A stretch of DNA of 64,000 bases from an uncultured delta proteobacterium (GTDB lineage Bacteria; Myxococcota_A; Polyangia; Polyangiales; Polyangiaceae): the NCBI GenBank assembly GCA_963696385.1, contig CAVOKF010000006.1, positions 1-64,000 of the forward strand, written 5' to 3'. The position numbers were made by a program, and so were the translations under genes. Positions 4,037 through 60,043 of the stretch are shown piece by piece. The notes under the pieces were generated by a model that was given only the letters and a program-made list of their open reading frames with translations, did not search any database and was not told the origin of the DNA. Each line of letters opens with the position of its first letter. Position 1 is the stretch's first letter.

Positions 4037-4147
4037 GCGAGTAGTAAGCCCAAAGTGCGTCGGTCGACGAAGAGCCACGGAAGAGGGCGCGGAAACATAT
4101 CGCGTCTTAGGGGCGTTCGTTATCGCTGAATCGGCGAACCGATTTGG
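4037..4147 (+). repeat. R repeat, intact 111-bp reference copy
   Basis: Matches the sequence obtained by removing the intron and the IS110 from 18170-24197. Terminal hairpin AATCGG-CGAA-CCGATT. Confidence 0.95.
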
Positions 4148-5996: not shown

Positions 5997-7007
5997 TCAT
6001 GCGGGAGCGTCGGCTGCCTGCTGGTCGCTGACCAGTCGCAGAAGCTGCTTGGCTTGCGCGACGAGGTGGTCGTAGGTCATCACGGTGATGTTGTGCATCC
6101 TTGCGTTGAGTCCGCGGAGCGCCCGTGTTTGCTCCGGGCGCCATTTGTGCGATCGACCGATCACGATGGTCGCGCGTGGGTGGTACGCAACGAGTAACGG
6201 ATGCGCCTCGAGCGAGCGGCTCATCGTGTCCTGCAGGGCGTCCATGTACTTGTGGGCCTGACCAATGGCGCGAGACGCATCCGAGCTGAAGTAATACGAC
6301 CCGTGCGACCGGTCCGCGCGCAGCACGGTGGCGTCGGGCCGTTTGAGCTCGACGACGTCCCGAAAGCCCGCGAGGTCGGTAAGCAAGAGATCGACAATGT
6401 TCCGGGCGTCCAGGCGTCGGACCTCATCCCGCATGACGTACGCGTGGCCGAACGCCCACGGATGGCGCTCGCACCACTCTTGGTAGACGTCTTCGCGGGC
6501 TTCCCCGGTCTCGAGCGCGCCCGTGAGCTCGTCGGCCGCCGCGTGGAGGTCGGCAGTGCGAAGTGCGCCACGAAGAGCTGTGGAGAGATGCCCCCGAAGG
6601 CGCGGATCTCGAAGCTGCGTCACAACAGCCGGGTCCGCCAGGAGCTGAGCCAGGACGGCAACAAACTCCGCGCGCTCGTTGAGCGAGAGGGCGGAGAAGG
6701 CGGCCTGCAGAGGCTCGATCGTCATGGGCAACGCGGAGCGGTTCGGCAGCTCGGAGAAGAACTGCTCAAGCTCCCGCAGCGTCGCTGGGCGCATCGCAAA
6801 GTGCCGCGCTACCGCGGCGCGTGAGCCGTGCTTGGCCAGCACCGCGCCGAAATCTCGCATCGTGCGCTCGCGGCCAGCGACCAGCGCCCAAGCGCGCAAC
6901 AGCTGGTTCCTGGTTTTGCCGGAGATCAGGCTCCCCGGCCTGTGCCGTGAGGAGAGCTCGTCGATCGCTTGCTCGAGGTCCCAGTCTGGGTCGAAGGGGT
7001 CGTCCAT
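5997..7007 (-). CDS. Shedu (SduA/DUF4263)-like PD-(D/E)xK nuclease with extra N-terminal domain
   Basis: EDVYQEWCERHPWAFG, IVDLLL, VVELKRP, YFSSDASRAIGQAHKY (QxxxY), IVIGRS, VMTYDHL. Confidence 0.85.
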   Translation of the reverse strand: MDDPFDPDWDLEQAIDELSSRHRPGSLISGKTRNQLLRAWALVAGRERTMRDFGAVLAKHGSRAAVARHFAMRPATLRELEQFFSELPNRSALPMTIEPLQAAFSALSLNERAEFVAVLAQLLADPAVVTQLRDPRLRGHLSTALRGALRTADLHAAADELTGALETGEAREDVYQEWCERHPWAFGHAYVMRDEVRRLDARNIVDLLLTDLAGFRDVVELKRPDATVLRADRSHGSYYFSSDASRAIGQAHKYMDALQDTMSRSLEAHPLLVAYHPRATIVIGRSHKWRPEQTRALRGLNARMHNITVMTYDHLVAQAKQLLRLVSDQQAADAPA

Positions 7008-7120
7008 GGAACCAGCGGGCGGCTGCTCTCGCCGTGGGGCAGCCGCAGGCCTTCTACCGTCGCGGCGAGCCGATGTGAAGGCACGTTGACGGGGCGGCGT
7101 AGATCGCGCTTGATAGGTCC

Positions 7121-8050
7121 GTGACAGCGCTTGCCGAGGAGATTGAAGGAGGGCGTCGCCGTCGCCAGGCGACCGACGGCAAGCTACCGAAGCCTCACCC
7201 GTTCCTGAAGTGGGTCGGCGGGAAGGGGAGGCTCCTCGAGCAGTTCGGAAGCCTGCTGCCGCCGACGTTCGACAGGTACTTCGAGCCGTTCTTCGGCGGT
7301 GGCGCTCTGTTCTTCTCGCTCGCCCCGCGGAGCGCGGTCCTCTCGGACGTCAACGCGGAGCTGGTGGACTGCTATCGCGCGGTTCGCGACGAGGTCGACG
7401 ACGTCATCGCGGCTCTTGGCGCGCATCGCTACGAGAAGGCCCATTTCTACGAGGTGCGAGCACTCGACCCGCGGTCGCTGACGTTGTCCGAGCGCGCGGC
7501 GCGGACGATCTTCCTCAATCGATCCGGCTTCAACGGGCTCTATCGCGTGAACCGGCAGGGGCGCTTCAACGTCCCCTTTGGCCGCTACACGAACCCCACG
7601 CTCTGCGACGCGTCCAACCTGCGGGCCTGCTCGCGCGCCCTCGAAGGCGTCGAGCTACGCTGCGGCGACTTCGCGGCTGCCGTCGTCACTGCGAAGCGCG
7701 GGGACTTCGTCTACTTCGACCCGCCGTACGTCCCGGTTTCGACGACAGCGAACTTCACGCACTACGCGGCCGGGCGGTTCGACTGGGCCGAGCAAGAACG
7801 GCTAGCGAAGCTCTTCGCGGATCTTTCGCGTCGGGGGGTGCTGGTGATGCTTTCGAACGCTGACACGGCCGAGGTTCGCGATCTCTTCGACGGCTTCCGC
7901 CTCGATCGGGTTGCAGCGTCGAGGAGCGTCAACTCGAACCCGGAGAAGCGGGGGAAGGTTGGCGAGGTCGTCGTCCGCAATTTTGGTCCGGGAGCTCGGC
8001 CGACGAACGGCGCGATCGTGCCACGCCGCAGACGCCAACCCGCTCGGTGA
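7121..8050 (+). CDS. DNA adenine methyltransferase (Dam/D12 class)
   Basis: LKWVGGK, YFEPFFGGGA, LNRSGFNGLYRVN, FNVPFG, FVYFDPPY. Confidence 0.95.
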   Translation: MTALAEEIEGGRRRRQATDGKLPKPHPFLKWVGGKGRLLEQFGSLLPPTFDRYFEPFFGGGALFFSLAPRSAVLSDVNAELVDCYRAVRDEVDDVIAALGAHRYEKAHFYEVRALDPRSLTLSERAARTIFLNRSGFNGLYRVNRQGRFNVPFGRYTNPTLCDASNLRACSRALEGVELRCGDFAAAVVTAKRGDFVYFDPPYVPVSTTANFTHYAAGRFDWAEQERLAKLFADLSRRGVLVMLSNADTAEVRDLFDGFRLDRVAASRSVNSNPEKRGKVGEVVVRNFGPGARPTNGAIVPRRRRQPAR

Positions 8051-11177: not shown

Positions 11178-11612
11178 TCATGGCTCGGTGAGGAGCGTAT
11201 ACAGCCCGCCTAGCTTGCCTGCAGGGAACGGCTCCTTCCCGGCCTTGAACCTCGACACCTGCGCGCGCTCGACGCCGAGCTTGCGCGCGAGCTCGGCGCC
11301 GAGGCCGCGGCGCTCGGCGGTTTTCCGCCGGAGCAGTGCGCGCACCTGGTCCTGAGAGACGTCGGCCGACGCGCGCGTCGGGAGGGGTCTTGCCGGCGGG
11401 GCGACTGGCGCGGCGGCCTCGACGCCGGCGACGTCGACGGCGGCGGCCTTCGCGGCGGCCCGAATGAGCTTGCGCATGACGCTCGAGAGCGAGACCTCGA
11501 CGCCGAGGTCCTCGAGCTCCTGGCGCTCGCGCTCGACGAGCCCCTCGAGCAGAGCGCGATCGCGCGCGCTGAGACGCAGGGTGACGAGCACCGACGGTCC
11601 GTCGCCCATCAC
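11178..11612 (-). CDS. DNA-binding regulator (RHH-like N-terminus, XRE-like HTH C-terminus)
   Basis: VTLRLSARDRALLE...SLSSVMRKLI and AELARKLGVERAQVSRFKAG. Overlaps the recombinase stop codon. Confidence 0.75.
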   Translation of the reverse strand: MMGDGPSVLVTLRLSARDRALLEGLVERERQELEDLGVEVSLSSVMRKLIRAAAKAAAVDVAGVEAAAPVAPPARPLPTRASADVSQDQVRALLRRKTAERRGLGAELARKLGVERAQVSRFKAGKEPFPAGKLGGLYTLLTEP

Positions 11613-12574
11613 ACCAGCCCCTTCGCCGGGTTGTTCACGAAGACCGTCGCGTGCTGGATGTACCCCCGCGCGACCCGCTCGGACTTGTGGCCGGTCTGCC
11701 GCATGATCGCCTCGAGCGGCCGACCCTTCTCAGCCGCGGTGGTCATGAAGCCGGAGCGCAGCGAGTGCCCCCCGTAGCGCGAGGGATTGAGGCCCGCAGC
11801 GAGCGCCGCGCGCTGGACGACGCGCGCGACCGACCGATCCGAGAGGGCCGTCTTCGCGACGTGTCCGTGTCGGTCAACGGCGCGGAAGATCGGCCCTTCG
11901 GTGATCCCGGCGGCGTCGAGCCATGCGCGGAGCGCGCGCACGGCGCACAGCGCGGGGGAGGACGCATACGGGACGCCCTTGTCGAAGCCCTTGCCCTCCT
12001 GGTCCCCCTTGGAGCGTCGAACGTGGACCAGGAGGCCCTCCGCCTGGAGCTCGACGTCGGCGACGTTCAGCGCGACGAGCTCGGAGCGGCGGCACGCGCT
12101 CGACCACCCAAGCGTCAGGAGAGCGCGGTCTCGCAGCCCGACGAGGTCCTCGTCGAGCGTCGCGACGAGTGCCGCGAGCTCGTCGTCGCTCACCGGCGCC
12201 TTCTTCGTCGACGACGTCCCGATCTTCCGGCGGATGCCGGCCATCGTCTCGCGCACGGCAGGTTCGCCGCGTGGCCAGACAAACCCGCGCGAGCGGTGCT
12301 CGTGTGCGATCGCCGCGAGGGTCTTCTCGATCGTGGAGACCGCGGCGCCGGCGTCGGCGAGCGCGGCGAGGTACACGGCCACCGTCGCCGGCGGCGCCGG
12401 GCACGCGGACAGGCCGCGCGAGGTGCACCACCCGTCGAAGCCGGCGAAGCTCGAGCGGTACGCGCGCCGGGTGCTCTTCGCCTTGCCCTCGGCGACGTAG
12501 CGCCGGGCGCTCTCAACAAGCTGCTCGATGGACTCAACATCCGTGGGCGTTCGGCGGGCGAGGGGGGCGGGCAT
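11609..12574 (-). CDS. Tyrosine recombinase, Cre-like
   Basis: RDRALL...RRSEL, RRSKGDQ, HSLRSG, QTGH...GY: complete R-K-H-R-H-Y set. Confidence 0.95.
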   Translation of the reverse strand: MPAPLARRTPTDVESIEQLVESARRYVAEGKAKSTRRAYRSSFAGFDGWCTSRGLSACPAPPATVAVYLAALADAGAAVSTIEKTLAAIAHEHRSRGFVWPRGEPAVRETMAGIRRKIGTSSTKKAPVSDDELAALVATLDEDLVGLRDRALLTLGWSSACRRSELVALNVADVELQAEGLLVHVRRSKGDQEGKGFDKGVPYASSPALCAVRALRAWLDAAGITEGPIFRAVDRHGHVAKTALSDRSVARVVQRAALAAGLNPSRYGGHSLRSGFMTTAAEKGRPLEAIMRQTGHKSERVARGYIQHATVFVNNPAKGLV

Positions 12575-18103: not shown

Positions 18104-18824
18104 CGAGCGGGGCTCGGAATGCCTACGCGTGTTCTTCGATCGCGGCGATGTGGCGCTCGCTCTTGCTCCGCGAGTAGTAAGCCCAGTGCGACCAGGCAAG
18201 GCTGGTCTGAAAGGAATGAGATGCGATGAGCTCATAAAATTCAGAGAGTCGTCCAGCGGGTGCGAACCCCGCCCGGCGAAGGGCCGAGCCCGTCCAGCCG
18301 GAAGCGAGGCTTGCGCCGGCCGCCGCAAGGCGTTCGGCGATGCGTAGTCACGCAAGTGAGTGGGCCGTGGGGAATGCAGCCACGAAAACTACATCAGTCC
18401 GGATGCCGAGCGCTTTGGGCAGCGCGAAGGCGACGGCGGCTGCTGCGCAGCAGGGCGAGCAGGAGCCGCATCCGGCGGGGTCTACGACCACGGCACGCCA
18501 CAAGAGGACGAACCAGACACCTGGGAGGCCCTCGCTTTTCCTCGGTGAAATCCCGGAGCCACGGAGAGCCGGTCACCCGTCTCCGACGCGCTGAGCGCAC
18601 GCGGATGCGCGCACGGCCGGCCGAGCGCCTCCCCGTGAGGGGCTCCGCGCAGAACAAGCATTCGCGCCGAGGTAGGCCGCTGGCGAGGGGAGACCGGAGC
18701 CACGGCCGAAGGGAGCGGGGGAGTCGGAGGGCCGCATACGAGCGTGGACGTCGGGGAACGGATTGGCACCCGGACCCGGCCGAGCAAAGGCGGCCCGTGC
18801 TGAGTTGAACTTCAGGAGGGAACC

Positions 18825-20144
18825 ATGCCCGACGCATCGACGTTGGAAGATATGTCACCGAAACTATTGAAGGTAGTGGAGCGAGCGAAAAGGGAGCCCG
18901 AAGGACGGTTCCACTCGCTGGCACATCTTATCGATGTGCACGCCTTGATGCGAGCCGACAAGCGCATGCGCAACGATGCGGCGGTCGGCGTGGATGGGGT
19001 CACGAAGGAGCAGTACGGGCAGGCCCTGGAAGAAAATCTCCGAAGCCTGCACGAGCGGTTGGTGGCGAAGCAGTATCGCCATCAGCCAATCCGGCGTGTT
19101 CACATCCCAAAGGAAAGGGGCAAGACACGGCCGATTGGGATTTCTGCGTACGAGGACAAGTTGGTCCAGGACGCCCTACGCGAAGTGCTGGAGGCGATAT
19201 ACGAGCAGGACTTTTTGGAATGCTCGTACGGCTTCCGGCCCGGTCGCGGTGCCCATGACGCCATTCGAGCCCTCGACCGTATTGCGCATCAGGGTAAGGT
19301 GAGCTGGATTTTGGAGGCCGACGTCGTGTCCTTCTTCGACAGCTTGGATCGCACCCAGCTGAAGGAGATGCTCCAAATTCGGGTGGCCGATGGGTCGCTG
19401 ATGCGGCTGATTGGCAAGTGCTTGCACGTTGGGGTGCTCGACGGCTCGGAATACGCCGAGCCGGACACGGGCGCAGCGCAAGGGTCCGTGCTCTCGCCGA
19501 TACTCGGCAACGTCTATCTCCACTACGTAATGGACCTGTGGTTCGAGCGCGATGTCAAGCCGCGTCTGCGCGGGGAAGCTCACCTCGTGCGTTATGTGGA
19601 CGACTTCGTGATGACATTCGAACATCAGGACGACGCGGAGCGGGTGATGGACGTTCTGGGAAAGCGGATGGGGCGTTTCGGGCTGACCCTGCACCCGGAC
19701 AAGACCCGCCTCTTGCCCTTCCGGCGTCCGCCGGCGGAGCAAGTTGGCGGCAAGGGTCCGGCCACCTTCGACTTTCTGGGATTCACGCTGTACTGGCAGC
19801 GCTCCCGAAGCGGTCGATGGGGAATGACGTGCAAGACACGGAGTGCGCGCCTACGACGGTCGATTCAAGCCGTCGCGGACTGGTGTCGTCGCCATCGACA
19901 CCTTCCGGTCAAGGAGCAGCACGCCGCGCTCACGAGGCGCATCCAAGGTCACTTCAACTATTTCGGCATCAGCGGCAACTTTCGCAGTCTGCTTCTGTTT
20001 GCCGAAGAGACGAAGCGAGTTTGGTATAAGTGGCTCCGCCGTCGGAGCCAACAAGCGCACCTCACCTGGGAAAAGTATGACGAGCTTCTGCAGCGTCTTC
20101 CTCTCCCGCGTCCCCGCATCAAGGTCCGAATCTGGGGGACGTAA
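18825..20144 (+). CDS. ltrA: Group II intron RT/maturase (YVDD, no endonuclease domain)
   Basis: AVGVDG, RPIGI, SYGFRPGR, QGSVLSP, RYVDD, FDFLGF, domain X. Confidence 0.95.
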   Translation: MPDASTLEDMSPKLLKVVERAKREPEGRFHSLAHLIDVHALMRADKRMRNDAAVGVDGVTKEQYGQALEENLRSLHERLVAKQYRHQPIRRVHIPKERGKTRPIGISAYEDKLVQDALREVLEAIYEQDFLECSYGFRPGRGAHDAIRALDRIAHQGKVSWILEADVVSFFDSLDRTQLKEMLQIRVADGSLMRLIGKCLHVGVLDGSEYAEPDTGAAQGSVLSPILGNVYLHYVMDLWFERDVKPRLRGEAHLVRYVDDFVMTFEHQDDAERVMDVLGKRMGRFGLTLHPDKTRLLPFRRPPAEQVGGKGPATFDFLGFTLYWQRSRSGRWGMTCKTRSARLRRSIQAVADWCRRHRHLPVKEQHAALTRRIQGHFNYFGISGNFRSLLLFAEETKRVWYKWLRRRSQQAHLTWEKYDELLQRLPLPRPRIKVRIWGT

Positions 20145-20198
20145 CCCACGAGCCAGCTCAGCGGAAGAGCCGGATGGTGGCAATCTCCTTGTCCGGTT

Positions 20199-22200
20199 GT
20201 GCGTCCAGCTAAGGCTGGCGCGTTTTGTGGGAGCCAGTCCCACCGAGGCTAAGAACCAGAGGCCTCGTAGCTTGAGTGGTAGGAAGGAGAGAAATCGATG
20301 ACCTAAAGCCCACTGACAAAGCCATCGCAAGGATGGTGAGCGAGTCCCCGGGCCGTAACGAAAGTGAACGCAGAGGTGGCCCCGAAAAGGAGAAACCCCG
20401 GAGGCCGAGCCCTCAACCGGAGGGCGAAGGCAGCACGGCACACCACAAACTGGTTGACGTGGTGGACCGCTCCGGCGGGGTGGTAGCGACGGCACGGAGA
20501 CAAGAACGCGCTGGAAACTGGAGAAGCCCTCCTCGCCCCGACGAGAAATCGACGGAAAAAGGTAGGTCGTATAACCGGCAACCCCGGGAAGTCGGCCGAA
20601 GGCGAAAGGGTGGCGGAGGGGCCGGTAGTAGCGTCGAAGCGGGGTAATGCCCGTGGAGCGAAGCGGCCCTGCTGTTGGTAATTCCTCTTACGAAACGGAA
20701 GGCAGGGGCGATATGATAAAGGCGCCTATTAGTCTGCAGGACCTGAGACGGAGGATATACGCGAAGGCGAAGGCTGAACCAACCTGGCGTTTCTGGGGAC
20801 TGTACGTCCACGTCTGCAAGACGGAAACGATTGAGGCCGCCTACGAGATGGTTAAGCAGAACGATGGAGCGCCGGGTATCGACGGCGTCACCTTCGAGGC
20901 CATCGAGGCAAGCGGCGTCGAGAAGTTCCTCGGGCAGATACGGGACGAACTAGTCTCGCATCAGTATCGACCCATGCGGAACCGTCGGAAAGCGATACCG
21001 AAGGATGGGGGCAAAACTCGCGTCCTCTCGATACCTGCAATCCGCGACCGTGTGGTCCAGGGGGCACTCAAGCTCATTCTGGAACCCATTTTCGAAGCTG
21101 ACTTCCAACCGGGGTCCTACGGCTACCGCCCGAAGCGGTCGCAGCATGGCGCGGTCCGCCGGGTAGCGGAGGCCGTCGTCAGGAATAAGACCCGGATCCT
21201 CGACATCGATTTGCGAGCCTATTTCGACAACGTTCGGCATCATGTGTTGCTCGAAAAAGTCGCAAAGCGCGTGAACGACGATGCGGTCATGACTCTCCTG
21301 TCGATGATTCTCAAAGCATCCGGTAAGAGGGGAGTTCCCCAAGGCGGGGTAATTTCACCCGTGCTCAGCAACCTGTACCTCAATGAGGTCGATAGGATGC
21401 TCGAGCGCGCCAAACAGGTCACGGCCGAAGGCAAGTACGCATATGTCGAATATGCGCGCTTTGCTGACGATCTTGTGGTCCTCGTGGACGCCTACCGACG
21501 CCATGCCTGGTTGCTGCAGGCGGTCAACCGTAGACTCCGGGAAGAATTCAGCAAACTTCACGTGGAAATCAACGAAGACAAGAGTCGACTCGTGGACCTC
21601 TCGAAAGACGAGAGCTTCGGATTTCTCGGCTTTGACTTTCGTCGCATCCGCAGTCTCCGCGGTGAATGGCGTCCGCATTTGACGCCGCAACGCAAGAAAC
21701 GGACGGCGCTGCTGCGCAAGCTCAAGGACGTGTTCCGACGTTTTCAGTCCCAGCCGGTGGAGCGGGTGGTGCAGATTATCAATCCGATTCTACGCGGATG
21801 GGTGCAATACTTTCGAGTGGGTCACTCGAGCCGATGCTTCGGCTTCGTCAAGGACTGGGTGGAGAAGAAGGTGAGGCGACATCTGATGCGTGCCCGGAAC
21901 CTGCCCGGTTTCGGCTGGAAGAGGTGGAGTAGGTCATGGCTCTACGGAACGCTCGGGCTCTTCAATGGGTACCGAGTGGCTCCGCGGCAGGACATGCCGA
22001 AAGCGCTCCCAGCACGATAGGTCCCATAAACCTTGGCGCGAAGCTGGCAGGACAGCGGAGTGCGGGAAATCCGCCTGCTCCGTTGGACGAGGCGGGGACT
22101 GGAAACGGAGCGATGGAGAGGCAAGTGAGGCACCGTCAACCGAAAGGGACGGAAACAGATTGGCCCCCCTGCACGCCACCGCGCCAGTCCTCGACCCTAC
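20199..22200 (+). mobile_element. Group II intron B nested in domain V of intron A
   Basis: 5' GTGCGTCCAG. Domain V AGCGGAGTGCGGGAAATCCGCCTGCTCCGTT. 3' end CTCGACCCTAC. Confidence 0.95.
20713..22020 (+). CDS. ltrA: Group II intron RT/maturase (FADD)
   Basis: APGIDG, IPAIRDRVVQ, SYGYRP, GVPQGGVISP, RFADD, FLGF, INPILRGWVQYF. Confidence 0.95.
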   Translation: MIKAPISLQDLRRRIYAKAKAEPTWRFWGLYVHVCKTETIEAAYEMVKQNDGAPGIDGVTFEAIEASGVEKFLGQIRDELVSHQYRPMRNRRKAIPKDGGKTRVLSIPAIRDRVVQGALKLILEPIFEADFQPGSYGYRPKRSQHGAVRRVAEAVVRNKTRILDIDLRAYFDNVRHHVLLEKVAKRVNDDAVMTLLSMILKASGKRGVPQGGVISPVLSNLYLNEVDRMLERAKQVTAEGKYAYVEYARFADDLVVLVDAYRRHAWLLQAVNRRLREEFSKLHVEINEDKSRLVDLSKDESFGFLGFDFRRIRSLRGEWRPHLTPQRKKRTALLRKLKDVFRRFQSQPVERVVQIINPILRGWVQYFRVGHSSRCFGFVKDWVEKKVRRHLMRARNLPGFGWKRWSRSWLYGTLGLFNGYRVAPRQDMPKALPAR

Positions 22201-22549
22201 CCGGCGAGGGCCCCGGGGCCAGTAAGCGCCCGGGGCTACTCGACAAGTGCGTCGGTCGACGAAGAGCCACGGAAGAGGGCGCGGAAACATATCGCGTCTT
22301 AGGGGCGTTCGTTATCGCTGAATCGGCGAAAGATTAGATGAACCGGTGGCGGCGCGTCCTGGACCGCCCGGCACGCCGCCCGGCACGGGTGCCGCAGCCT
22401 CGAGATCGATCGCGGGGCGTCTCGAGAGCAGCCCCCGTGCCGGTCGTCGGTCATCGAAAATAGCGACCGACCTCCCGCTGGATTATCCATCCGACACCCC
22501 CGCGTGCTCAAAGGCACAAAGCGAAGTGGGGGCCGAAGGGAGATCGATC

Positions 22550-23701
22550 ATGCGGAGCATAGGATTGGATCTTGGAGCGCGCCACATTGCGTATTGCGAG
22601 ATACGGAACGGAGAGGTCATCGATCGGACCTCTGTGAAGAGGCTGGACCAACTCAAGTCGCGAATCGGCCCCGACTGTCCACCTGCGCGGATTGCGTTTG
22701 ATGCGTCGCGTGAAGGATGGCACGTGCACGATACCCTCACGTCGTGGGGGCACGATGCGAAGATGATCGATACGACGCGGGTGCGTGCGATGGGCGTCGC
22801 GCATCACAAGCGCAAAAACGATGCTCTCGATGCTGAGGCGGCCGCACGTGCCGTAGACCAAGGACGGATCCCCGAGGCGCACATTCTGTCTCCCGCCCGC
22901 CGAGCCCTGCGCGCGCAGTTGAGCGTGCGCGGCGCGCTGGTCGAAACACGTGCGCAGTATGTGACGACGATACGCGGGCTCGGGCGCGCGGCAGGCGTGC
23001 TCCTTCCCACATGCACAACCGAGAACTTTGTGAACAAGGTTCGCGAGAGCTCGCTCGACGACGCGACGAGCACGCTCATCGCGCCGCTCCTTGCCGTGCT
23101 CGTCGGAGTCGAAGAAGAGCTCACCAAGGTCGAACGGACGCTTTCGGAAATGGCGATGCGTGAGCCCATCACGAAACTTCTCGCCACCGCTCCTGGCGTC
23201 GGCCTTATCGTGGCGTCCACCTTCGTTTCGGTGATCGACGAGGCGAAGCGCTTTCGCAATGCGCAGGCAGTCGGAGCGTACCTTGGTTTGGTGCCGTCGG
23301 AGTTGACGACAGGCGGACCTGAAAAGCGGCGCCTGGGCTCGATCACCAAGCAGGGCAACACGTATGCGAGAAAAATGCTCGTCCAAGCGGCGTGGCTCAT
23401 CCTCAGGTCACGCGACATGGACGACCCGATTCGCCAGTGGGGCGACCGCATCGCCAAGACGCGAGGCAAGAGAATCGCCGTCATCGCCATCGCACGAAAA
23501 CTCGCCGGCGTCCTCTGGGCGATGTGGCGCGACGGCACCGCTTACGATCCGGTGGGACAGGCCAAGGCGAGCGCAAAGGGCACTCGCAGAGAGGCTCGTT
23601 CGAAAAACGCGAATGCGGAGGCGCTCGAACGATCCGCCAAGAAACTCCAACGGCGGGCTCCTCGCCGCAACAAGATTTCGGAGGACGTCGCCATGACATG
23701 A
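22550..23701 (+). CDS. IS110 DEDD recombinase/transposase
   Basis: IGLDLG, KNDALDA, PGVG, AYLGLVPS, ITKQGN, AIARKL. GAAGGGAG RBS. Confidence 0.95.
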   Translation: MRSIGLDLGARHIAYCEIRNGEVIDRTSVKRLDQLKSRIGPDCPPARIAFDASREGWHVHDTLTSWGHDAKMIDTTRVRAMGVAHHKRKNDALDAEAAARAVDQGRIPEAHILSPARRALRAQLSVRGALVETRAQYVTTIRGLGRAAGVLLPTCTTENFVNKVRESSLDDATSTLIAPLLAVLVGVEEELTKVERTLSEMAMREPITKLLATAPGVGLIVASTFVSVIDEAKRFRNAQAVGAYLGLVPSELTTGGPEKRRLGSITKQGNTYARKMLVQAAWLILRSRDMDDPIRQWGDRIAKTRGKRIAVIAIARKLAGVLWAMWRDGTAYDPVGQAKASAKGTRREARSKNANAEALERSAKKLQRRAPRRNKISEDVAMT

Positions 23702-23739
23702 ATCGTCACGACTGTCTCCGATGCGCCTTGAGCGCGTAG

Positions 23740-24020
23740 CCTAAGAGCACCCCATCTGGAGGAACGTTGAACGCGACAAATTGGTAGAAGCTCTTACGAT
23801 CTCCGCTCCGGTGGAGACGTGACTGTACTTCGTGCGAAAAATTGCGTCTCGTTCCACCGCTTCGAATCCAAATCTACGTCTCGGGCCTTGGACGCGAACT
23901 TCGCTGCCCGATGAACGTGAAGAGTCAATCGAGAGGTAGCTCGCCAAGCCGCGCGTTCGGAGCGCTCCCCTTACTGTCACCGTGCTCCGGCGCCCTCAAG
24001 CGCCGAGAAGGGAAACGTCC
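23740..24020 (+). ncRNA. Candidate bridge/seek RNA
   Basis: Two stems with internal loops (TAAGAGC/GCTCTTA; GAGACGT/ACGTCTC) conserved in the orphan copy. Position is typical of IS1111. Boundaries are approximate. Confidence 0.6.
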
Positions 24021-24189
24021 ATTGAATTCTAAGAACCCAGCTCACTCCGAAACGAAAAAAAACTCTTTGCGCGAAACCCCTTGCCCACGCCACCGGTTCA
24101 GAGTCATTGAATTCTAAGAACCCAGCTCACTCCGAAACGAAAAAAAACTCTTTGCGCGAAACCCCTTGCCCACGCCACCGGTTCAGAGT
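24020..24189 (+). repeat. 85-bp tandem duplication of the IS right end
   Basis: 24020-24104 = 24105-24189, each containing the right IR. Confidence 0.95.
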
Positions 24190-24330
24190 CCGATTTGCGC
24201 CTTTCCTTGGGCCATGTCGAGCCCCCCTCGTGCACGATGCGGTTGCCGGCTGGCGGCGGCCGAAGCCGCTCCGGTTGCCGGAACGGCCCATTTGTGGCAT
24301 AATTCCTGCGGAATTTCGAGGAGTTTGACG

Positions 24331-24618
24331 ATGGCGAAGCCCCTGACCCCTGCTGACCTGCCTGATGACGTCGCGCAACTCGCGCAAGCACAGATCGCAG
24401 CCGGTCGGTTCGCGTCGGTCGAGGAATTCCTTCGCGCGACCGCCGCGGCGTTCCGCCTCACGGACCGAGTCCCGGCGGTCGATGACGAAGCCGCGTTCGT
24501 CGCGGCCGTCCATGAAGGACTCGCAGACCTCGCGGCGGGGAACGTCCGGTCTCACGAGGACGTCGTCGCCGACACCGAGCGGCTGTTGGCCACGTACGAA
24601 GACCGACGCCCTCAGTAA
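24331..24618 (+). CDS. ParD-like antitoxin
   Basis: AQIAAGRFASVEEFLR, AVHEGLADLAAGNV. TAATG coupling to the toxin. Confidence 0.8.
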   Translation: MAKPLTPADLPDDVAQLAQAQIAAGRFASVEEFLRATAAAFRLTDRVPAVDDEAAFVAAVHEGLADLAAGNVRSHEDVVADTERLLATYEDRRPQ

Positions 24619-24902
24619 TGCGGCTCGCTTGGACGCGACGCGCGGAGCGCGACCGTAAGCGGATCGTCGCTTACGTCGCCGAGCGCAATCCCGCCGCCGC
24701 GCGCCGCATCGTCGCCGCGATCGACGCGCAGCTCGAAGCGGTGCTGGATTTCCCGAACCTTGGGACGCAGGGGCGTGTGCCAGGCACGCGCGAGTTCGTG
24801 GTCCTGCGGCTACCGTACATCGTCGTCTACACCGTGATGGAGGACATCGTTTACGTCGTCCATGTCTGGGATGGGCGGCGCGACCTCCTACCGAAGCCGT
24901 AG
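24618..24902 (+). CDS. RelE/ParE-family toxin
   Basis: LAWTRRAERD, FPNLG..GRVPGTRE, PYIVVY, VWDGRRD. Confidence 0.9.
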   Translation: MRLAWTRRAERDRKRIVAYVAERNPAAARRIVAAIDAQLEAVLDFPNLGTQGRVPGTREFVVLRLPYIVVYTVMEDIVYVVHVWDGRRDLLPKP

Positions 24903-26402: not shown

Positions 26403-27065
26403 TTGGCGGCTGGGGAGCTCGAGCAAACGGCGTGCTCCCGGCACGTGAAAGTATCGGAGCGGGTGTGCCCTTTTTGCGGAGAGACCGCCGCGCGGCCGTC
26501 GACGGGCGATCCGTTCCGACGCATGGCCGCGGCGGCTGCCGTCGCCGCGGGGCTCACGGCGTGTTCCAGTTCCGGCACGTCCAGTTCCGGCACGCCCTTT
26601 TACGGCGCCCCGGGCCCGGAGTCCGACGCGACGGGCGGCGCCGTCGCGTCGGAGTCCGGAACGCTCGGAGGCGAAGATGCGTCTTCGGTGGTCTTGTTCT
26701 ATGGGTTCGGCAACCCTGCCCCGGTGCAAGACGACGCCACGACCGGCGCGTCCGATGCGCACGAGGACGGGCCGCCGGAGCGGGAAGATGCGCCGTCGGT
26801 GGTCGCGTTCTACGGGATCGCCAATCCCGTCCCCGTCCAGGGCGACGCCACGACCGGCGCGTCCGATGCGCACGAGGATGGCCCGTCGGAGCGGGAAGAT
26901 GCGCCGTCGGTGGTCGCGTTCTACGGGATCGGCAATCCCGTCCCCGTCCAGGGCGACGCCACGACCGGCGCGTCCGATGCGCACGAGGATGGTCCGTCGG
27001 AGCGGGAAGATGCGCCGTCGGTGGTCGCGTTCTACGGGATCGCCAACCCCAAACCGCACGGGTGA
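26403..27065 (+). CDS. Cys-motif lipoprotein-like protein with repeated FYG motifs; 5' end uncertain
   Basis: CSRHVKVSERVCPFCG, lipobox LTAC, five FYG motifs. Confidence 0.65.
   Translation: MAAGELEQTACSRHVKVSERVCPFCGETAARPSTGDPFRRMAAAAAVAAGLTACSSSGTSSSGTPFYGAPGPESDATGGAVASESGTLGGEDASSVVLFYGFGNPAPVQDDATTGASDAHEDGPPEREDAPSVVAFYGIANPVPVQGDATTGASDAHEDGPSEREDAPSVVAFYGIGNPVPVQGDATTGASDAHEDGPSEREDAPSVVAFYGIANPKPHG
26733..27050 (+). repeat. 111-bp (37-aa) coding tandem repeat, about 3 copies
   Basis: Unit DATTGASDAHEDGP(P/S)EREDAPSVVAFYGI(A/G)NPVPVQG. Confidence 0.9.
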
Positions 27066-37864: not shown

Positions 37865-38946
37865 GTACCTCGAATCCATTGACGCGACCGGGTTTGCTTT
37901 CCATGGCGACGAGGGCGTGCTCCATGGTGGGCCATGAAAAAGCGCTACGTAGTGAATCTGACGGTGGACGAGCGGGCGGCGCTGACGCAGCTCGTGAAGC
38001 GTGAGCGCGTCTCGGGCCTGAAAAGGCTTCGCGCAAGCATTTTGCTGAAAGCCGACGAAGGGCTGACCGATCAGGAAATCGCGGACGACTTGGAGGCCGG
38101 GCTCGTCACGGTGGAGCGCGTGCGCAAGCGCTGCTGCGAGCGCGGCGTCGAAGCGTGCCTGGAGCGCAAGCCCCAAGACACCCCGTCGCGGCCGCGAAAG
38201 CTCGACGGGGCCTCGGAGGCGCGGCTGGTTCAGATCGCTTGCAGTGAGCCGCCCGCAGGGCGGGCACGGTGGACCATCTCGCTTCTCGCGGACCGACTCG
38301 TCGAGCTGAAGGTGTTCGACTCCGTCAGCCCGAGCACGGTCCATCGACCCTATGATCCGGACCGGCCGCAGGTCTGTCTCGACGAGACCAGCAAGCAGTT
38401 GCTCGAGCACACCCGCCAGCCCGTTCCTGCGAGCCCCGGCACACCGGCCCGCGTCGATGACGAATACAAGCGGTGCGGCACAGCCAACATCTTCGCTGCC
38501 GTGGAACCGTTGACCGGGCAATCCGTCGTCGAAGTGACCGAGCGACGCACGGCCGTCGACATGGCGCATTTCTTAGCCCGCCTGTCCGACGAGACCTACG
38601 CAACCGCGACCGTCATCGTCTTGGTCATGGACAACCTCAACATCCACGATCTTTCGTGCCTGTACGAAGCATTCGCGCCCAAAGAGGCTCGTCGTCTGGT
38701 CGAGAGGTTCGAGGTTCACCACACCCCCAAGCACGGCAGTTGGCTCAACGTCGCCGAAATCTTCCTCTCGACCCTATCGATACAGTGTCTCGACCAGCGC
38801 GTCGGCAGCATCGGCGCGCTCCACACGATCGTCTCCGCGTGGCAGGCTTCGCGACCCGACCGCAAGGTCAACTGGCGCTTCACCACGGCGGACGCACGCA
38901 TCAAGCTGCGCCGCCTCTACCCTTCCATTCCGTAGAACCGGGGTAC
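37865..38946 (+). mobile_element. IS630-family element
   Basis: Both ends in CTAG context (TA duplication), IR GTACC(T/C)CG. Confidence 0.92.
37934..38935 (+). CDS. IS630 transposase, probably internally deleted
   Basis: HTH, CLDETSKQL, VMDNLNIH, TPKHGSWLNVAE, KLRRLYP. Confidence 0.9.
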   Translation: MKKRYVVNLTVDERAALTQLVKRERVSGLKRLRASILLKADEGLTDQEIADDLEAGLVTVERVRKRCCERGVEACLERKPQDTPSRPRKLDGASEARLVQIACSEPPAGRARWTISLLADRLVELKVFDSVSPSTVHRPYDPDRPQVCLDETSKQLLEHTRQPVPASPGTPARVDDEYKRCGTANIFAAVEPLTGQSVVEVTERRTAVDMAHFLARLSDETYATATVIVLVMDNLNIHDLSCLYEAFAPKEARRLVERFEVHHTPKHGSWLNVAEIFLSTLSIQCLDQRVGSIGALHTIVSAWQASRPDRKVNWRFTTADARIKLRRLYPSIP

Positions 38947-39024
38947 TAGCTCATTTCGGGGCCCTATTCCGCAGCCCGCGCGCTCGCTGTCTCCGCTTCC
39001 CAGCCCGGGTCGCCCACGCAAGAC

Positions 39025-39040
39025 GCGAGTAGTAAGCCCA
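39025..39040 (+). repeat. R left tip serving as 5' exon of the second intron A copy
   Basis: GCGAGTAGTAAGCCCA, identical to 18170-18185, with unrelated sequence further upstream. Confidence 0.9.
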
Positions 39041-40460
39041 GTGCGACCAGGCAAGGCTGGTCTGAAAGGAATGAGATGCGATGAGCTCATAAAATTCAGA
39101 GAGTCGTCCAGCGGGTGCGAACCCCGCCCGGCGAAGGGCCGAGCCCGTCCAGCCGGAAGCGAGGCTTGCGCCGGCCGCCGCAAGGCGTTCGGCGATGCGT
39201 AGTCACGCAAGTGAGTGGGCCGTGGGGAATGCAGCCACGAAAACTACATCAGTCCGGATGCCGAGCGCTTTGGGCGGCGCGAAGGCGACGGCGGCTGCTG
39301 CGCAGCAGGGCGAGCAGGAGCCGCATCCGGCGGGGTCTACGACCACGGCACGCCACAAGAGGACGAACCAGACACCTGGGAGGCCCTCGCTTTTCCTCGG
39401 TGAAATCCCGGAGCCACGGAGAGCCGGTCACCCGTCTCCGACGCGCCGAGCGCACGCGGATGCGCGCACGGCCGGCCGAGCGCCTCCCCGTGAGGGGCTC
39501 CGCGCAGAACAAGCATTCGCGCCGAGGTAGGCCGCTGGCGAGGGGAGACCGGAGCCACGGCCGAAGGGAGCGGGGGAGTCGGAGGGCCGCATACGAGCGT
39601 GGACGTCGGGGAACGGATTGGCACCCGGACCCGGCCGAGCAAAGGCGGCCCGTGCTGAGTTGAACTTCAGGAGGGAACCATGCCCGACGCATCGACGTTG
39701 GAAGACATGTCACCGAAACTATTGAAGGTAGTGGAGCGAGCGAAAAGGGAGCCCGAAGGACGGTTCCACTCGCTGGCACATCTTATCGATGTGCCCGCCT
39801 TGATGCGAGCCGACAAGCGCATGCGCAACGATGCGGCGGTCGGCGTGGATGGGGTCACGAAGGAGCAGTACGGGCAGGCCCTGGAAGAAAATCTCCGAAG
39901 CCTGCACGAGCGGTTGGTGGCGAAGCAGTATCGCCATCAGCCAATCCGGCGTGTTCACATCCCAAAGGAAAGGGGCAAGACACGGCCGATTGGGATTTCT
40001 GCGTACGAGGACAAGTTGGTCCAGGACGCCCTACGCGAAGTGCTGGAGGCGATATACGAGCAGGACTTTTTGGAATGCTCGTACGGCTTCCGGCCCGGTC
40101 GCGGTGCCCATGACGCCATTCGAGCCCTCGACCGTATTGCGCATCAGGGTAAGGTGAGCTGGATTTTGGAGGCCGACGTCGTGTCCTTCTTCGACAGCTT
40201 GGATCGCACCCAGCTGAAGGAGATGCTCCAAATTCGGGTGGCCGATGGGTCGCTGATGCGGCTGATTGGCAAGTGCTTGCACGTTGGGGTGCTCGACGGC
40301 TCGGAATACGCCGAGCCGGACACGGGCGCAGCGCAAGGGTCCGTGCTCTCGCCGATACTCGGCAACGTCTATCTCCACTACGTATTGGACCTGTGGTTCG
40401 AGCGCGATGTCAAGCCGCGTCTGCGCGGGGAAGCTCACCTCGTGCGTTATGCGGACGACT
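39041..40460 (+). mobile_element. Second copy of group II intron A, truncated just after YADD (RT fragment from 39680)
   Basis: Near-identical to 18186-19605; lacks domain X, V and VI. Confidence 0.95.
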
Positions 40461-40477
40461 GTGCGCCACGACGGCGC

Positions 40478-40827
40478 TGAAGCACGCGTGCTACGTTCTC
40501 TGCGATCGAGTCCGTTGCGACGAAACTCATCTCGGTCGCGAAACCACTCTTGCGCGCGAGCTCCGCCTGCTCGATCGCGGCCGTAGTTCGGAGCGTCGTC
40601 TCCACCGCGAACGACTCCCGCCGCTCGATGTGATCGAAGACGAAGCGCTCGCACTCCATCGCGACGGCGCGACGCACCTCGCGCGGGATCGCGCGGTAGC
40701 TCCCGAGGATCTGCGCGCAGCGGTCGTCGATGTTGAACGCGTCGACGCCGAACGCCGACACGGGGAAGTACCGGGTCTTGCCGCTGCCCGGAGGACCGGC
40801 CACCACGATCATGCGCGGACGCGCCAT
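40478..40827 (-). pseudogene. Zeta-toxin-like P-loop protein, 3'-truncated
   Basis: VVAGPPGSGKT, SFAVETTL, ENVARVLQR, then breaks into intron sequence. Confidence 0.75.
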
Positions 40828-48440: not shown

Positions 48441-48510
48441 ACCCCTCGCTGGCGTGAGGGGCAGGTCAGACGAGCGTCGGCGAGTGCGCATGGCCAGCAG
48501 CACGAGCCTA

Positions 48511-48700
48511 GTACCTCGATTCCGCGGAATGGAAGGGTCGTTTTCCGCGATATTCCCGACGGGATCGGGTGGTCTCACCCCTCCGTTTCATGGAATCGGG
48601 GTACTAGTACCTCGATTCCGCGGAATGGAAGGGTCGTTTTCCGCGATATTCCCGACGGGATCGGGTGGTCTCACCCCTCCGTTTCATGGAATCGGGGTAC
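48511..48700 (+). mobile_element. Two tandem 94-bp IS630-related MITEs
   Basis: CTAG at 48508, 48604 and 48700 (96-bp period). IR GTACCTCGATTCC / GGAATCGGGGTAC. Confidence 0.92.
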
Positions 48701-48810
48701 TAGCCCCAAGCGTGTCGGTTGAAAACAGAGCTCGCTGGTTGCGCCGATGCCGAGCTGCCGCGCAGCGGCTTCGTCCAAGATTCCTTTGGGGCGTTCGTTC
48801 TCACTGAAAC
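48701..48810 (+). repeat. Divergent R copy ending at the IS1634 breakpoint
   Basis: TAGCCCCAAGCGTGTCGG...ATTCCTTTGGGGCGTTCGTTCTCACTGAAAC. The right part matches 43754-43784. Confidence 0.7.
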
Positions 48811-50590: not shown

Positions 50591-51466
50591 GTGGAAGCGG
50601 TACTTCGGCATAGGGGACGCGCAGTCGACACGGACGATGTCGCGTTTGTGCGAGAGCTGATCGCGCAAAACCCGGGAGCGAGTCGTCGGGCGCTGTCGTT
50701 CAAGATTTGCCAGGCATGGGGGTGGGCTCAGCCCAATGGGACGTGGTGCGACGCGATTTGCCGTGGGCTGATGCTGCGACTGCACCGGGAAGGCCATGTG
50801 GAGCTGCCTGCGGCGCGATGGCGAAGCAAGCAGCCCCGTCGCCACGCGGTGGTGCAGCACATTGAGGTCCGCGTCGCCCCGCTGGTGGCGCGTCTTGCGG
50901 ATCTCGGGCCACTGGACATCCGCCAGGTTCGCCGCACGCCGGAGGAGACGCTGGTCAAGTCTCTCGTCGAGCAGCATCACTACCTGGGCTACGCGCATCC
51001 GGTCGGCGAGCACCTTAAGTACCTCGTGTCCGCCGGAGGGCAACCGATCGCGTGTTTCTGTTGGTCGTCGGCGGCGCGCCATCTGGGGCCACGCGATCGA
51101 TACATCGGTTGGTCCAAGGAGCAGCGAAAGGCCCGGATTCGCTTGGTCGCCTACCAGAGCCGATTTCTCATCCTGCCGTGGGTCGAGGTGCCGCACCTGG
51201 CGTCGCATCTGCTCGGCGCGATCTCGCGCAGGCTGTCGGACGATTGGCAGCAGGTCTACGGGCATCCGATTTACTTTACGGAGACATTTGTCGATCCGAC
51301 CCGTTTTCGCGGCACGTGTTACCGCGCCGCCAACTGGACGGTTCTCGGGATGACCGCCGGCCTCGGCAAGGACGCTCGCGGCTCGATTCCCAATCGTTCC
51401 CTCAAACAGCTGTTCGGATATCCGCTGGTCGGCGACTTCCGAAAACGCCTGCTCGGTGGGTACTGA
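50591..51466 (+). CDS. DUF4338 (DruA-like) protein
   Basis: HHYLGY, GEHLKYLV, RDRYIGW, RFLILPWV, HLASHLL, ETFVD, GTCYRAANW. Confidence 0.9.
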   Translation: MEAVLRHRGRAVDTDDVAFVRELIAQNPGASRRALSFKICQAWGWAQPNGTWCDAICRGLMLRLHREGHVELPAARWRSKQPRRHAVVQHIEVRVAPLVARLADLGPLDIRQVRRTPEETLVKSLVEQHHYLGYAHPVGEHLKYLVSAGGQPIACFCWSSAARHLGPRDRYIGWSKEQRKARIRLVAYQSRFLILPWVEVPHLASHLLGAISRRLSDDWQQVYGHPIYFTETFVDPTRFRGTCYRAANWTVLGMTAGLGKDARGSIPNRSLKQLFGYPLVGDFRKRLLGGY

Positions 51467-56401: not shown

Positions 56402-56748
56402 CCAGGACTTCGCCGTCAGGTGCGCGGGCGCCGCCGCCCCTGCGAACGCCCTTTCGGTGACGGACTGGATCGTGAGCGCTGACGTGTCCGGGGTCGAAGA
56501 CGTAGCCAATCGGCCAATTCGTGGCGAGGAATTTTCAGCCCTCGGGCTCGCGCGAGACCTTGCAGCTCTATTCCCATGAACATGAAGGCGAGCAGCAGCG
56601 CCTGAACCCCGAGCGGCTTCCCTCGTCCGTCCGTAATTCACAAGCGCAACGATAGCCGCCAGCCTCGAGTTGCTCAGGAAAGCGAAACCGAGCCTCGACG
56701 CGGACGCTGGAGCCGTCGAGGGTCGCTGAGAAGCGCCTCGTCAGACTA

Positions 56749-56842
56749 GTACCCCGATTCCATGAAACGGAGGGGTGAGACCACCCGATCCCGTCGGGAA
56801 TATCGCGGAAAACGACCCTTCCATTCCGCGGAATCGAGGTAC
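56749..56842 (-). mobile_element. 94-bp MITE
   Basis: Reverse complement of 48511-48604, CTAG at both ends. Confidence 0.92.
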
Positions 56843-56849
56843 TAGTAGT

Positions 56850-59674: not shown

Positions 59675-59871
59675 ACGGAAGGAACCGCGGGGTCGAGCTC
59701 GTGGAGCTGGCGCGGCACCGCTCGCGCGCTGGTTCGGTGGCGCGCATGCCGGTCGTTGGTGGCTGGTCCTCCAAGTCTTGCCGATTCGCAAGGCAAGCTG
59801 ACTGCAAACTTTGGCATCAACTGGGGCCCCGCGCGCCACCGTGCGCTCACGTGCGGCGTGCGCTAGCGCTA

Positions 59872-59965
59872 GTACCCCGATTCCATGAAACGGAGGGGTG
59901 AGACCACCCGATCCCGTCGGGAATATCGCGGAAAACGACCCTTCCATTCCGCGGAATCGAGGTAC
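59872..59965 (-). mobile_element. 94-bp MITE
   Basis: Same as 56749-56842, CTAG at both ends. Confidence 0.92.
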
Positions 59966-60043
59966 TAGCCCCGATCTGACATTCGTAGCGAAAAGGTTGT
60001 GAGACAGGAAATCGCCTGTTTGTTCGTGTTTGTCTCGCGTTGT

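Follow-up and report, generated by a model that had tools for sequence, protein, structure and literature searches.

The stretch analyzed here, termed the window, is 64,000 nucleotides (nt) of DNA from an uncultured delta proteobacterium of the Polyangiaceae (assembly GCA_963696385.1, contig CAVOKF010000006.1, positions 1–64,000). It contains a repeated sequence of 111 nt, termed R, and one copy of R, at 18170–24198, is interrupted by a group II intron (intron A) and by an insertion sequence (IS) of the IS1111 type. A further group II intron (intron B) is nested within intron A. The analysis documents the anatomy of the locus, the junctions, the site specificity of the inserted elements, the covariation of intron guides with their exons, and a polymorphism of intron B, and it addresses the nature of R.

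Anatomy of the interrupted R sequence

The features of the interrupted copy and of the related sites in the window are:

18170–18185, + strand, R positions 1–16, putative outer terminus of an ISCR/IS91-like right end and 5′ exon of intron A
18186–20198, + strand, 5′ segment of intron A, with the 5′ end GTGCG and a match to intron domains 1 to 4 at 18264–18490
20199–22200, + strand, intron B, 2002 nt, nested in intron A, GTGCG...CCCTAC
22201–22244, + strand, 3′ tail of intron A, i.e. the last base of domain 5 plus domain 6, ending ...CTACTCGAC
22245–22330, + strand, R positions 17–102, with 100% identity to 4053–4138
22331–24104, + strand, IS1111-type IS, 1774 nt, with subterminal inverted repeats, transposase gene (tnp) and 3′ non-coding region
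24105–24189, + strand, 85 nt that repeat the 3′ end of the IS (24020–24104) exactly and in tandem
24190–24198, + strand, R positions 103–111, CCGATTTGC
4037–4147, + strand, uninterrupted R, the reference empty site, which aligns with both halves of the filled copy
39024–39040, + strand, left end of R at a second, independent insertion of intron A, with a different upstream flank
39041–40477, + strand, 5′ fragment of intron A (positions 1–1420, 99.6% identical), then 17 nt of intron C (described below), then unrelated DNA
502–802, + strand, diverged 3′ fragment of the IS, 90–94% identical, ending ...CAGAGT
803–810, + strand, right end of R, CGATTTGG, after the IS fragment

The empty site at 4037–4147 sets both junctions unambiguously, and these are GCCCA(4052)|AAGTG(4053) for intron A and GGCGAA(4138)|CCGATTT(4139) for the IS. 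Intron A is located between R positions 16 and 17 (16|17) and the IS between positions 102 and 103 (102|103). The coordinates given in an earlier note on this DNA all hold, and the second use of each site that it reported is real, at 39040|39041 for the intron and at 802|803 for the end of the IS. The note described two RNA-guided elements in one R. This is correct for intron A and the IS, however the locus has three such elements, as intron B is nested in intron A.

The insert at 18186–22244 is 4059 nt long (GTGCG...CTCGAC) and has two open reading frames for reverse transcriptases (RT). Domains 1 to 4 of intron A match RF02005 with 107.6 bits (cut-off 49), and its termini, GTGCG...GAC, fit the GUGYG / AY rule of mobile group II introns. 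The intron A RT open reading frame at 18825–20144 has a translated sequence of 439 amino acids (aa) with a YVDD motif, is without an endonuclease (En) domain, and matches RVT_1 (Pfam) and TIGR04416 (323 bits, cut-off 300). Pfam shows no HNH endonuclease domain in the RT open reading frames of introns A and B, and PDB matches of the intron proteins are group II RTs. Domain 5 of intron A is placed at 20167–20198 solely by alignment to A′, whose own domain 5–domain 6 region scores 40.5. A′ is a relative of intron A with 51% identity and a length of 1950 nt, and is present in two full copies plus fragments. It occupies the opposite strand of R, near the other R end. Domain 6 of intron A has a bulged A located 7 nt from the end, and the tail was aligned by eye to the end of A′, ...CTACCCGAC.

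Intron B is inserted at the 3′ edge of domain 5 of intron A and splits that domain at its last base pair. The match to domains 1 to 4 is at 20225–20363 (RF02003, 111.3 bits, cut-off 49), and the ends GTGCG...TAC fit the GUGYG / AY rule. The RT/maturase open reading frame at 20647–22020 encodes 457 aa with an FADD motif and matches TIGR04416 (366 bits, cut-off 300), RVT_1 and GIIM. Contigs from a peat DNA run (X7) and from an RNA library (X15) display a joint from 20198 to 22201 that omits exactly 2002 nt with GT..AC ends. Thus intron A without intron B exists in the population, i.e. there is a presence/absence polymorphism of intron B. A tandem arrangement, with intron A ending near 20360 and intron B following it, was considered and rejected. 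The RF02003 match lies upstream of the intron B open reading frame and GTGCG is at 20199; in addition, the alignment of the intron A tail with A′ and the contig joint that skips 20199–22200 are against it.

Intron C is a third intron nested in intron A. It is 1878 nt long, of the RF01999 type, and its site is in the YADD codons of the intron A RT gene (..GACGACT|T). The target codons are at 19596–19606 in the window copy of intron A, and intron C sequence is present at C7:1374673 and at 40461–40477 in the window. The sole copy of intron A free of intron C is that of the window, and this copy reads YVDD, with GTG for GCG, 9 nt upstream of the insertion point of intron C. This change may be an escape change in the homing site of intron C. 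The intron C 5′ end at 19605 is a loose end in all four sequencing runs examined.

A census of the junctions of intron A and of the IS was run over the whole genome. All four long copies of intron A start at the left end of R (...CA|GTGCG) and their upstream flanks are unrelated; one of the four is in the R variant GGCCGTTCA, which still pairs with the intron via G-U. A fifth piece of about 60 nt adjoins an R-like left end. Among species-representative genomes, the sole exact match to the intron A 5′ end (1/1) follows GCGAGTAGTAAACCCA, which is again the left end of R. The second full copy of intron A, in contig C7, is interrupted by intron B at the site used in the window and has two more insertions, intron C in the YADD codons and an element of 4.5 kb near position 530 of intron A. 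This 4.5-kb insertion (C7:1380057–1375565) has 13-bp inverted repeats, CTTCAGCGGCGCC, and duplicates 8–10 bp at intron A positions ~529–538. A solo 44-nt tail of intron A, which begins exactly at the intron B insertion point, is found at C6:105634–105677 and C7:1434044–1434087, where it is fused to unrelated DNA (..GACTTCCAG|CCGGCGAGG); the two loci represent one duplicated arrangement.

The IS has a perfect subterminal inverted repeat of 13 bp, TGAACCGGTGGCG, at 22339–22351 and 24088–24100. Its tnp gene (22550–23701) encodes a DEDD transposase of 383 aa that matches PF01548 (34.3 bits, cut-off 29), PF02371 (67.7 bits, cut-off 21.3) and NF033542 (217.6 bits, cut-off 140), and the motif GLVPSELTTG at residue 246 fits the IS1111 motif GL-P----S(t)G. 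The non-coding sequence downstream of tnp is 403 nt (23702–24104) compared with 219 nt upstream (22331–22549). The family features used here, i.e. the subterminal inverted repeats, terminal extensions, downstream non-coding region and motif, are those of sections 4 and 6 of PMC11187229; in that account the IS1111 subterminal repeats are 11–13 bp and perfect or almost perfect, and the extensions are asymmetric, the left one being 7 (or 6) bp and the right one 3 bp. ISfinder places the IS1111 family in its IS110 group.

Insertion of the IS is in a single orientation and without target duplication. In this genome six of six left junctions read ..GCGAA|AGATTAG, and after twelve of twelve right ends, fragments included, the sequence is (C)CGATTTGG or differs from it by one base. 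Among the IS-bearing copies both the variant of R and the outer flanks vary. The three left junctions found in public metagenome contigs are all in R, and one of these (L049) corresponds to the locus C4:1019597. The earlier note had asked for a check for copies outside of R, and a search of the genome, metagenome contigs and other genomes shows none for either element.

Two further observations concern the IS. The duplication at 24020–24189 puts two ..GGTTCAGAGT termini in succession and is seen only in the window copy. In G003, the one related genome with R, an IS fragment (IS positions 1187–1323) adjoins R position 1 at C206:1–247, which suggests that here an R-ended element inserted into the IS, i.e. 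that the parasitism is reversed.

Guides of the introns and candidate guide of the insertion sequence

The earlier note had pointed to a hairpin loop of intron A, TTTGGGC at 18414–18420, as complementary to R across the junction. The loop is indeed within a hairpin that is paired by the RF02005 model. In intron A the predicted exon-binding site 1 (EBS1), TGGGC at 18416–18420, faces the intron-binding site 1 (IBS1) GCCCA, and EBS2, ACTAC at 18388–18392, faces IBS2, GTAGT. The same domain 1 hairpin, followed by GAAGGC, is found in introns A, A′ and B, with the loops UUUGGGCA (A), UUUUGAAA (A′) and CAACCGG (B). The 5′ exon ends that these loops face are GCCCA (A), UUUCAA (A′) and CCGGUU (B), the latter being the end of domain 5 of intron A. 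In intron B the loop is at 20414–20420 and EBS1, AACCGG, at 20415–20420, within the hairpin 20409–20425. In intron C a complement search yielded a hairpin loop with AGUCGU, which complements the exon end ACGACU and is a possible counterpart of these loops.

When the loops of the four introns are compared with all four exons, each forms 5, 6, 6 and 6 Watson-Crick pairs, respectively, with its own exon, and no off-diagonal combination has more than 4. Candidates for EBS2 are at equivalent single-stranded positions in A (ACUAC with GUAGU at -12 to -8) and A′ (CCGUC with GACGG at -14 to -10). In addition, two metatranscriptome assemblies contain a variant of intron A whose loop is UUUGGAUC and whose adjoining R, also a variant, ends in GUCCA; this is a natural compensatory change. 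Thus EBS/IBS guidance of the introns is supported by the covariation of guide and exon sequences. As to pairing across the junction, the UGGGC/GCCCA part co-varies; the UU that faces the AA of the 3′ exon recurs in A′ even though the 3′ exon there starts with UG, and this part of the earlier proposal is not supported by covariation.

The IS has a candidate guide (seekRNA) region at ~23839–23952 of its 3′ non-coding region. Compared with relatives in the genus, this patch is conserved at 75–83% versus 66–68% for tnp. An alignment with these relatives shows an invariant scaffold, CCGATGAACGCGAAGAGTCAATCGAGAGGTAGCTCG, and two variable segments. One variable segment, CCAAATC, is the bottom strand of GATTTGG, and the other, GCGAAC, is the top strand across the insertion point; the target that spans this point is GGCGAA|CCGATTTGG. 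In the consensus fold both variable segments are in unpaired loops and there are 2 compensatory pairs (four sequences). Folding of the IS non-coding region alone gives a structure no better than those of shuffled sequences (z = +1.33). The IS is probably guided by an RNA from the 3′ non-coding region, as judged by these sequence features.

In two metatranscriptome libraries, each from a different study, there are contigs that span the last part of tnp together with the candidate seekRNA region in an IS variant (window 23513–23970). The RNA-library contigs cover the introns and the non-coding region and not most of tnp; such contigs show neither transcription nor its absence and are at most a weak hint.

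The earlier note had called the intron and the IS dedicated parasites of R. This description is borne out, in that both are position- and orientation-specific and RNA guidance is supported.

R, the Y2 transposase and the surrounding island

The genome carries 103 matches to R, full or partial (nhmmer), so that R is abundant as the earlier note had stated; with each match at most ~125 nt long these span ~0.1–0.2% of the 6.94-Mb genome, and the location of all IS and intron A junctions at one base of R each is thus more than chance would give. The copies cluster in accessory regions near contig ends. There are arrays of R in the same orientation with a spacing of 1–5 kb and with accessory and toxin-antitoxin genes between them. 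Alignment of the copies displays conserved arms around a variable central segment that is hairpin-like. Single-sequence and alignment folds gave z = -1.64 for the top strand against shuffles and z = -0.90 in another fold test. RNAalifold shows almost no consensus structure for the R alignment, and R has no match in Rfam.

All four genes with a Y2_Tnp domain (PF04986, over the cut-off) have R downstream, in reverse complement; in the L015 copy R begins 67 nt past the transposase stop codon. The Y2 transposase units are homologous to one another up to R position 1, give or take a few bases. The best NCBIfam match of the Y2 transposase is ISCR clade Ia. Read on the transposase strand, R ends in CTCG(C). 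Of 24 other genomes of the genus, 16 have the transposase family (a tally that includes G010), and several of six transposase genes of relatives display downstream an inner ..GCTTTG.. and an outer ..CCTACxC.. motif, ~110–125 nt apart. R itself was found by BLAST only in G000 and G003 among 41 related genomes, i.e. in one of 24 other same-genus genomes. In IS91 and ISCR the end downstream of the transposase gene is oriIS, according to PMC13181058 and PMC13393415. R most likely represents the module at the right end of an ISCR/IS91-like rolling-circle transposon, where it would have the role of oriIS, and the elements may be active at the present day.

R is an insertion hub, as it has received intron A, A′, the IS1111-type IS and further elements. 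One of these is a DDE-type IS of 1476 bp (461-aa open reading frame) found at C6:108748–110223, C7:1397665, C8:878418, C4:1144851 and other positions, with 9–10-bp duplications of the form TA..N..TTA. About 10 of about 20 of its junctions are in R, at positions ~68–77 and in both orientations. It was considered as a dedicated parasite of R and rejected, because it is enriched in R and not exclusive to it. An element of ~1.9 kb at C6:97156–99068 is in R at ~77–80; its terminal inverted repeats are GCTGAAGTTCC, and TTAG is duplicated at its insertion site.

The window represents an accessory island. It has Shedu SduA-like, Dam-type methyltransferase, ParE toxin, zeta-toxin fragment and DruA-like sequences (5997–8050, 24618–24902, 40447–40827, 50591–51466), transposases of the IS3, IS630 and IS4/5 types, and a tyrosine recombinase at 11609–12574. 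A 100-nt repeat similar to miniature inverted-repeat transposable elements, with the terminal inverted repeats CTAGTACCCCGATTCC...GGAATCGAGGTACTAG, is present in four copies, two of them in tandem (48508–48703, 56746–56845, 59869–59968, and a partial copy near 38930). A tandem array at 26606–27049 has a period of 111 nt over 444 nt, and its successive 222-nt windows are 78–79% alike; it lies in an open reading frame (26403–27065) that has no Pfam match.

Interpretation and comparison with known systems

Very probably, R is an ISCR/IS91-like right end that serves as a landing pad for the RNA-guided, site-specific parasites intron A, intron B and the IS. The proposed explanation is as follows. 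An ISCR/IS91-like element would have scattered ~100 full or partial copies of R across the accessory regions of this myxobacterial genome. As R is multi-copy, dispensable and mobile, it would have become the target of several site-specific parasites, which find it by RNA-DNA base pairing. Intron A, which lacks an endonuclease, would reverse-splice into the top strand of R at 16|17 by means of EBS1 UGGGC/IBS1 GCCCA and EBS2 ACUAC/IBS2 GUAGU. Intron B would home into intron A at the 3′ edge of domain 5 by EBS1 AACCGG/CCGGUU, and this creates a putative twintron in which intron B would have to be removed before intron A folds. The IS would enter R at 102|103 in one orientation, guided by two variable loops of an RNA from its 3′ non-coding region.

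The earlier note had argued from the presence of dedicated parasites that R is functional. In such an explanation R would be a structured site of the host, similar to a repetitive extragenic palindromic (REP) sequence, a small RNA or a regulatory hairpin, and the parasites would be a sign of its upkeep by the host. The abundance of R, the variable central hairpin-like segment between conserved arms, and the top strand that folds somewhat better than shuffles (z = -1.64) are compatible with this. However R is the terminus of four of four Y2 transposase units, its copies concentrate close to the ends of contigs, within accessory regions, only 1 of 24 other same-genus genomes has it by BLAST (2 of all 41 related genomes), and neither an Rfam match nor more than a trace of RNAalifold consensus structure was found. 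As R appears to be the end of a parasite itself, dedicated parasites do not imply a service to the host; a host function is not borne out and is considered improbable. The single-strand exposure of R that the note had proposed is plausible for a different reason, as IS91-type elements move via single-stranded circles (PMC13181058).

An attC-type site of a large integron, or of a cluster of attC sites lacking an integrase (CALIN), would fit the arrays of same-orientation R copies, in which accessory and toxin-antitoxin genes occupy the 1–5 kb from one R to the next, and both kinds of parasite are known from attC sites (passages in PMC4424553 and PMC11187229); the intron and the IS would then belong to the known attC-targeting groups, IIC-attC introns and IS1111-attC. 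This was rejected as extremely improbable. The genome is 96% complete and has no integron integrase (TIGR02249 reaches 68.5 bits at best, with a cut-off of 265), no RYYYAAC/GTTRRRY core pair is seen in R, intron A differs from class C introns in that it uses both EBS1 and EBS2 and has a linear homing site, and R is attached to a rolling-circle transposase. It is also very improbable that the shared positions are copies of one ancestral insertion, spread by segmental duplication or gene conversion, and not the result of repeated targeting. Copying does occur in this genome: C6:105634 and C7:1434044 have 437 nt upstream in common, the first ~4 kb of the window are twinned at the start of C7, and metagenome locus L049 is the locus at C4:1019597. 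However at least five IS-bearing copies of R have different R sequences and different flanks on both outer sides, the four copies that bear intron A have unrelated upstream flanks and one of these is the variant GGCCGTTCA, and for gene conversion the homologous stretch of R would be just 9 nt on the right side of the IS and 16 nt on the left side of intron A. Copying would also not account for EBS1 loops that co-vary with the exon.

Several observations weigh against R as an ISCR/IS91-like landing pad of RNA-guided parasites. The scores of the Y2 transposase do not reach the NCBIfam cut-offs, with 282.8 against 925 for ISCR clade Ia (NF052416) and 97 against 125 for IS91 (NF033538), and no consistent flanking tetranucleotide comparable to the CTTG/GTTC of IS91 is found beside R in 31 aligned copies. 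Simple one-ended rolling-circle transposition does not account for the sharp inner edge that solo copies of R have. As to the introns, domain 5 of intron A is undetected by Rfam at E ≤ 1, the domain 5–domain 6 match of intron B (22051–22145, RF00029) has 35.5 bits and is below the gathering cut-off of 40, and the only copy of intron A with an intact RT open reading frame has YVDD and is interrupted by intron B. The joint that lacks intron B occurs in a DNA run too, and thus is no proof of splicing. The terminal extensions of the IS are asymmetric but are 8 and 4 nt, as set unambiguously by the empty site, and not the usual 7 and 3. Matches of 6–7 nt between candidate seekRNA and target, taken on their own, are expected by chance and are not significant. 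For the relatives of the IS with 66–68% identity in other genomes neither ends nor targets could be defined, and no R was found beside them.

Each component of the locus is of a known kind; the target class has not been found described. IS4321 of the IS1111 family, which targets the inverted repeats of the Tn21 family, is one known example of an IS with a structured repeated target. Among IS1111 elements, ISKpn4 and ISPst6, which target attC, and ISPa11, which targets REP sequences, resemble the window IS in the DEDD and PF02371 transposase, the 13-bp subterminal repeat and the long downstream non-coding region, and IS1111 relatives use one exact position and orientation in a short repeated target without duplication (as described in the sections of PMC11187229 on these elements). 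The seekRNAs of section 9 of the same source have two short segments that match the top and bottom target strands, with the complement of the top strand first, which is also the order of the two variable segments in the window IS. Unlike the family as these sections present it, the window IS has a putative ISCR/IS91-like right end as its target, extensions of 8 and 4 versus 7 and 3, and a transposase of 383 aa versus the 330–350 aa stated for the family.

RmInt1, which resides in ISRm2011-2, is an En-less homing intron in mobile DNA. Introns of this kind belong to classes D, E and F (PMC4424553), and introns A and B are like these in the GUGCG...AC ends, the six domains and the RT/maturase in domain 4, and intron A also in EBS1/EBS2 homing into another mobile element. 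The target of intron A, however, is a non-coding transposon end and not a transposase gene. A further difference from known En-less introns is that A and A′, which are related lineages, use opposite strands and different positions of one 111-nt element. The twintrons of Methanosarcina acetivorans, in the account of PMC4424553, are comparable to intron B at the domain 5 edge of intron A and to intron C in its RT open reading frame, in that no coding exons are around them, the outer intron is a perpetual homing site and there are many truncated copies. Unlike known twintrons, intron B interrupts domain 5, the catalytic domain of the intron that it occupies, at the last base pair, the stack has an extra level, R, below it, and an RNA-guided IS is beside the introns in the same 111-nt unit.

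The R element resembles ISCR/IS91 elements, as PMC13181058 and PMC13393415 describe these, in its Y2 HUH transposase, in the end module downstream on the oriIS side, and in its link with arrays of captured accessory genes. It differs in that its transposase is below the NCBIfam equivalog cut-offs, no flanking tetranucleotide was recognised, and R is present as ~100 mostly solo modules with a sharp inner boundary. The literature searched, which was of incomplete coverage, has no report of an IS1111 element or a group II intron that targets an ISCR/IS91 end.

A broader picture may be drawn, although as a whole it is rather unlikely. In it there would be a chain of hyperparasites with four levels, i.e. 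the host, R, then A, A′ and the IS in R, and lastly B and C which occur only in A. Entry of the parasites would be via the single-stranded rolling-circle intermediate, the splitting of the transposon end 16 nt from its terminus would act as a natural brake on gene capture by an ISCR-like system, and YVDD would be the escape from intron C.

For annotation, the reading of R as a parasitized transposon end explains a 6-kb block that otherwise resembles two stray RTs plus a transposase. It also corrects the tempting conclusion that dedicated parasites point to a host function, as the site appears to be a parasite itself. The EBS1 variants matched to R variants, and the variable guide loops on a conserved IS scaffold, may represent natural examples of reprogramming. 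Two unrelated RNA-guided systems, intron retrohoming and seekRNA-directed recombination of the IS1111 type, would thus have specialized independently on one 111-nt end of a rolling-circle transposon.

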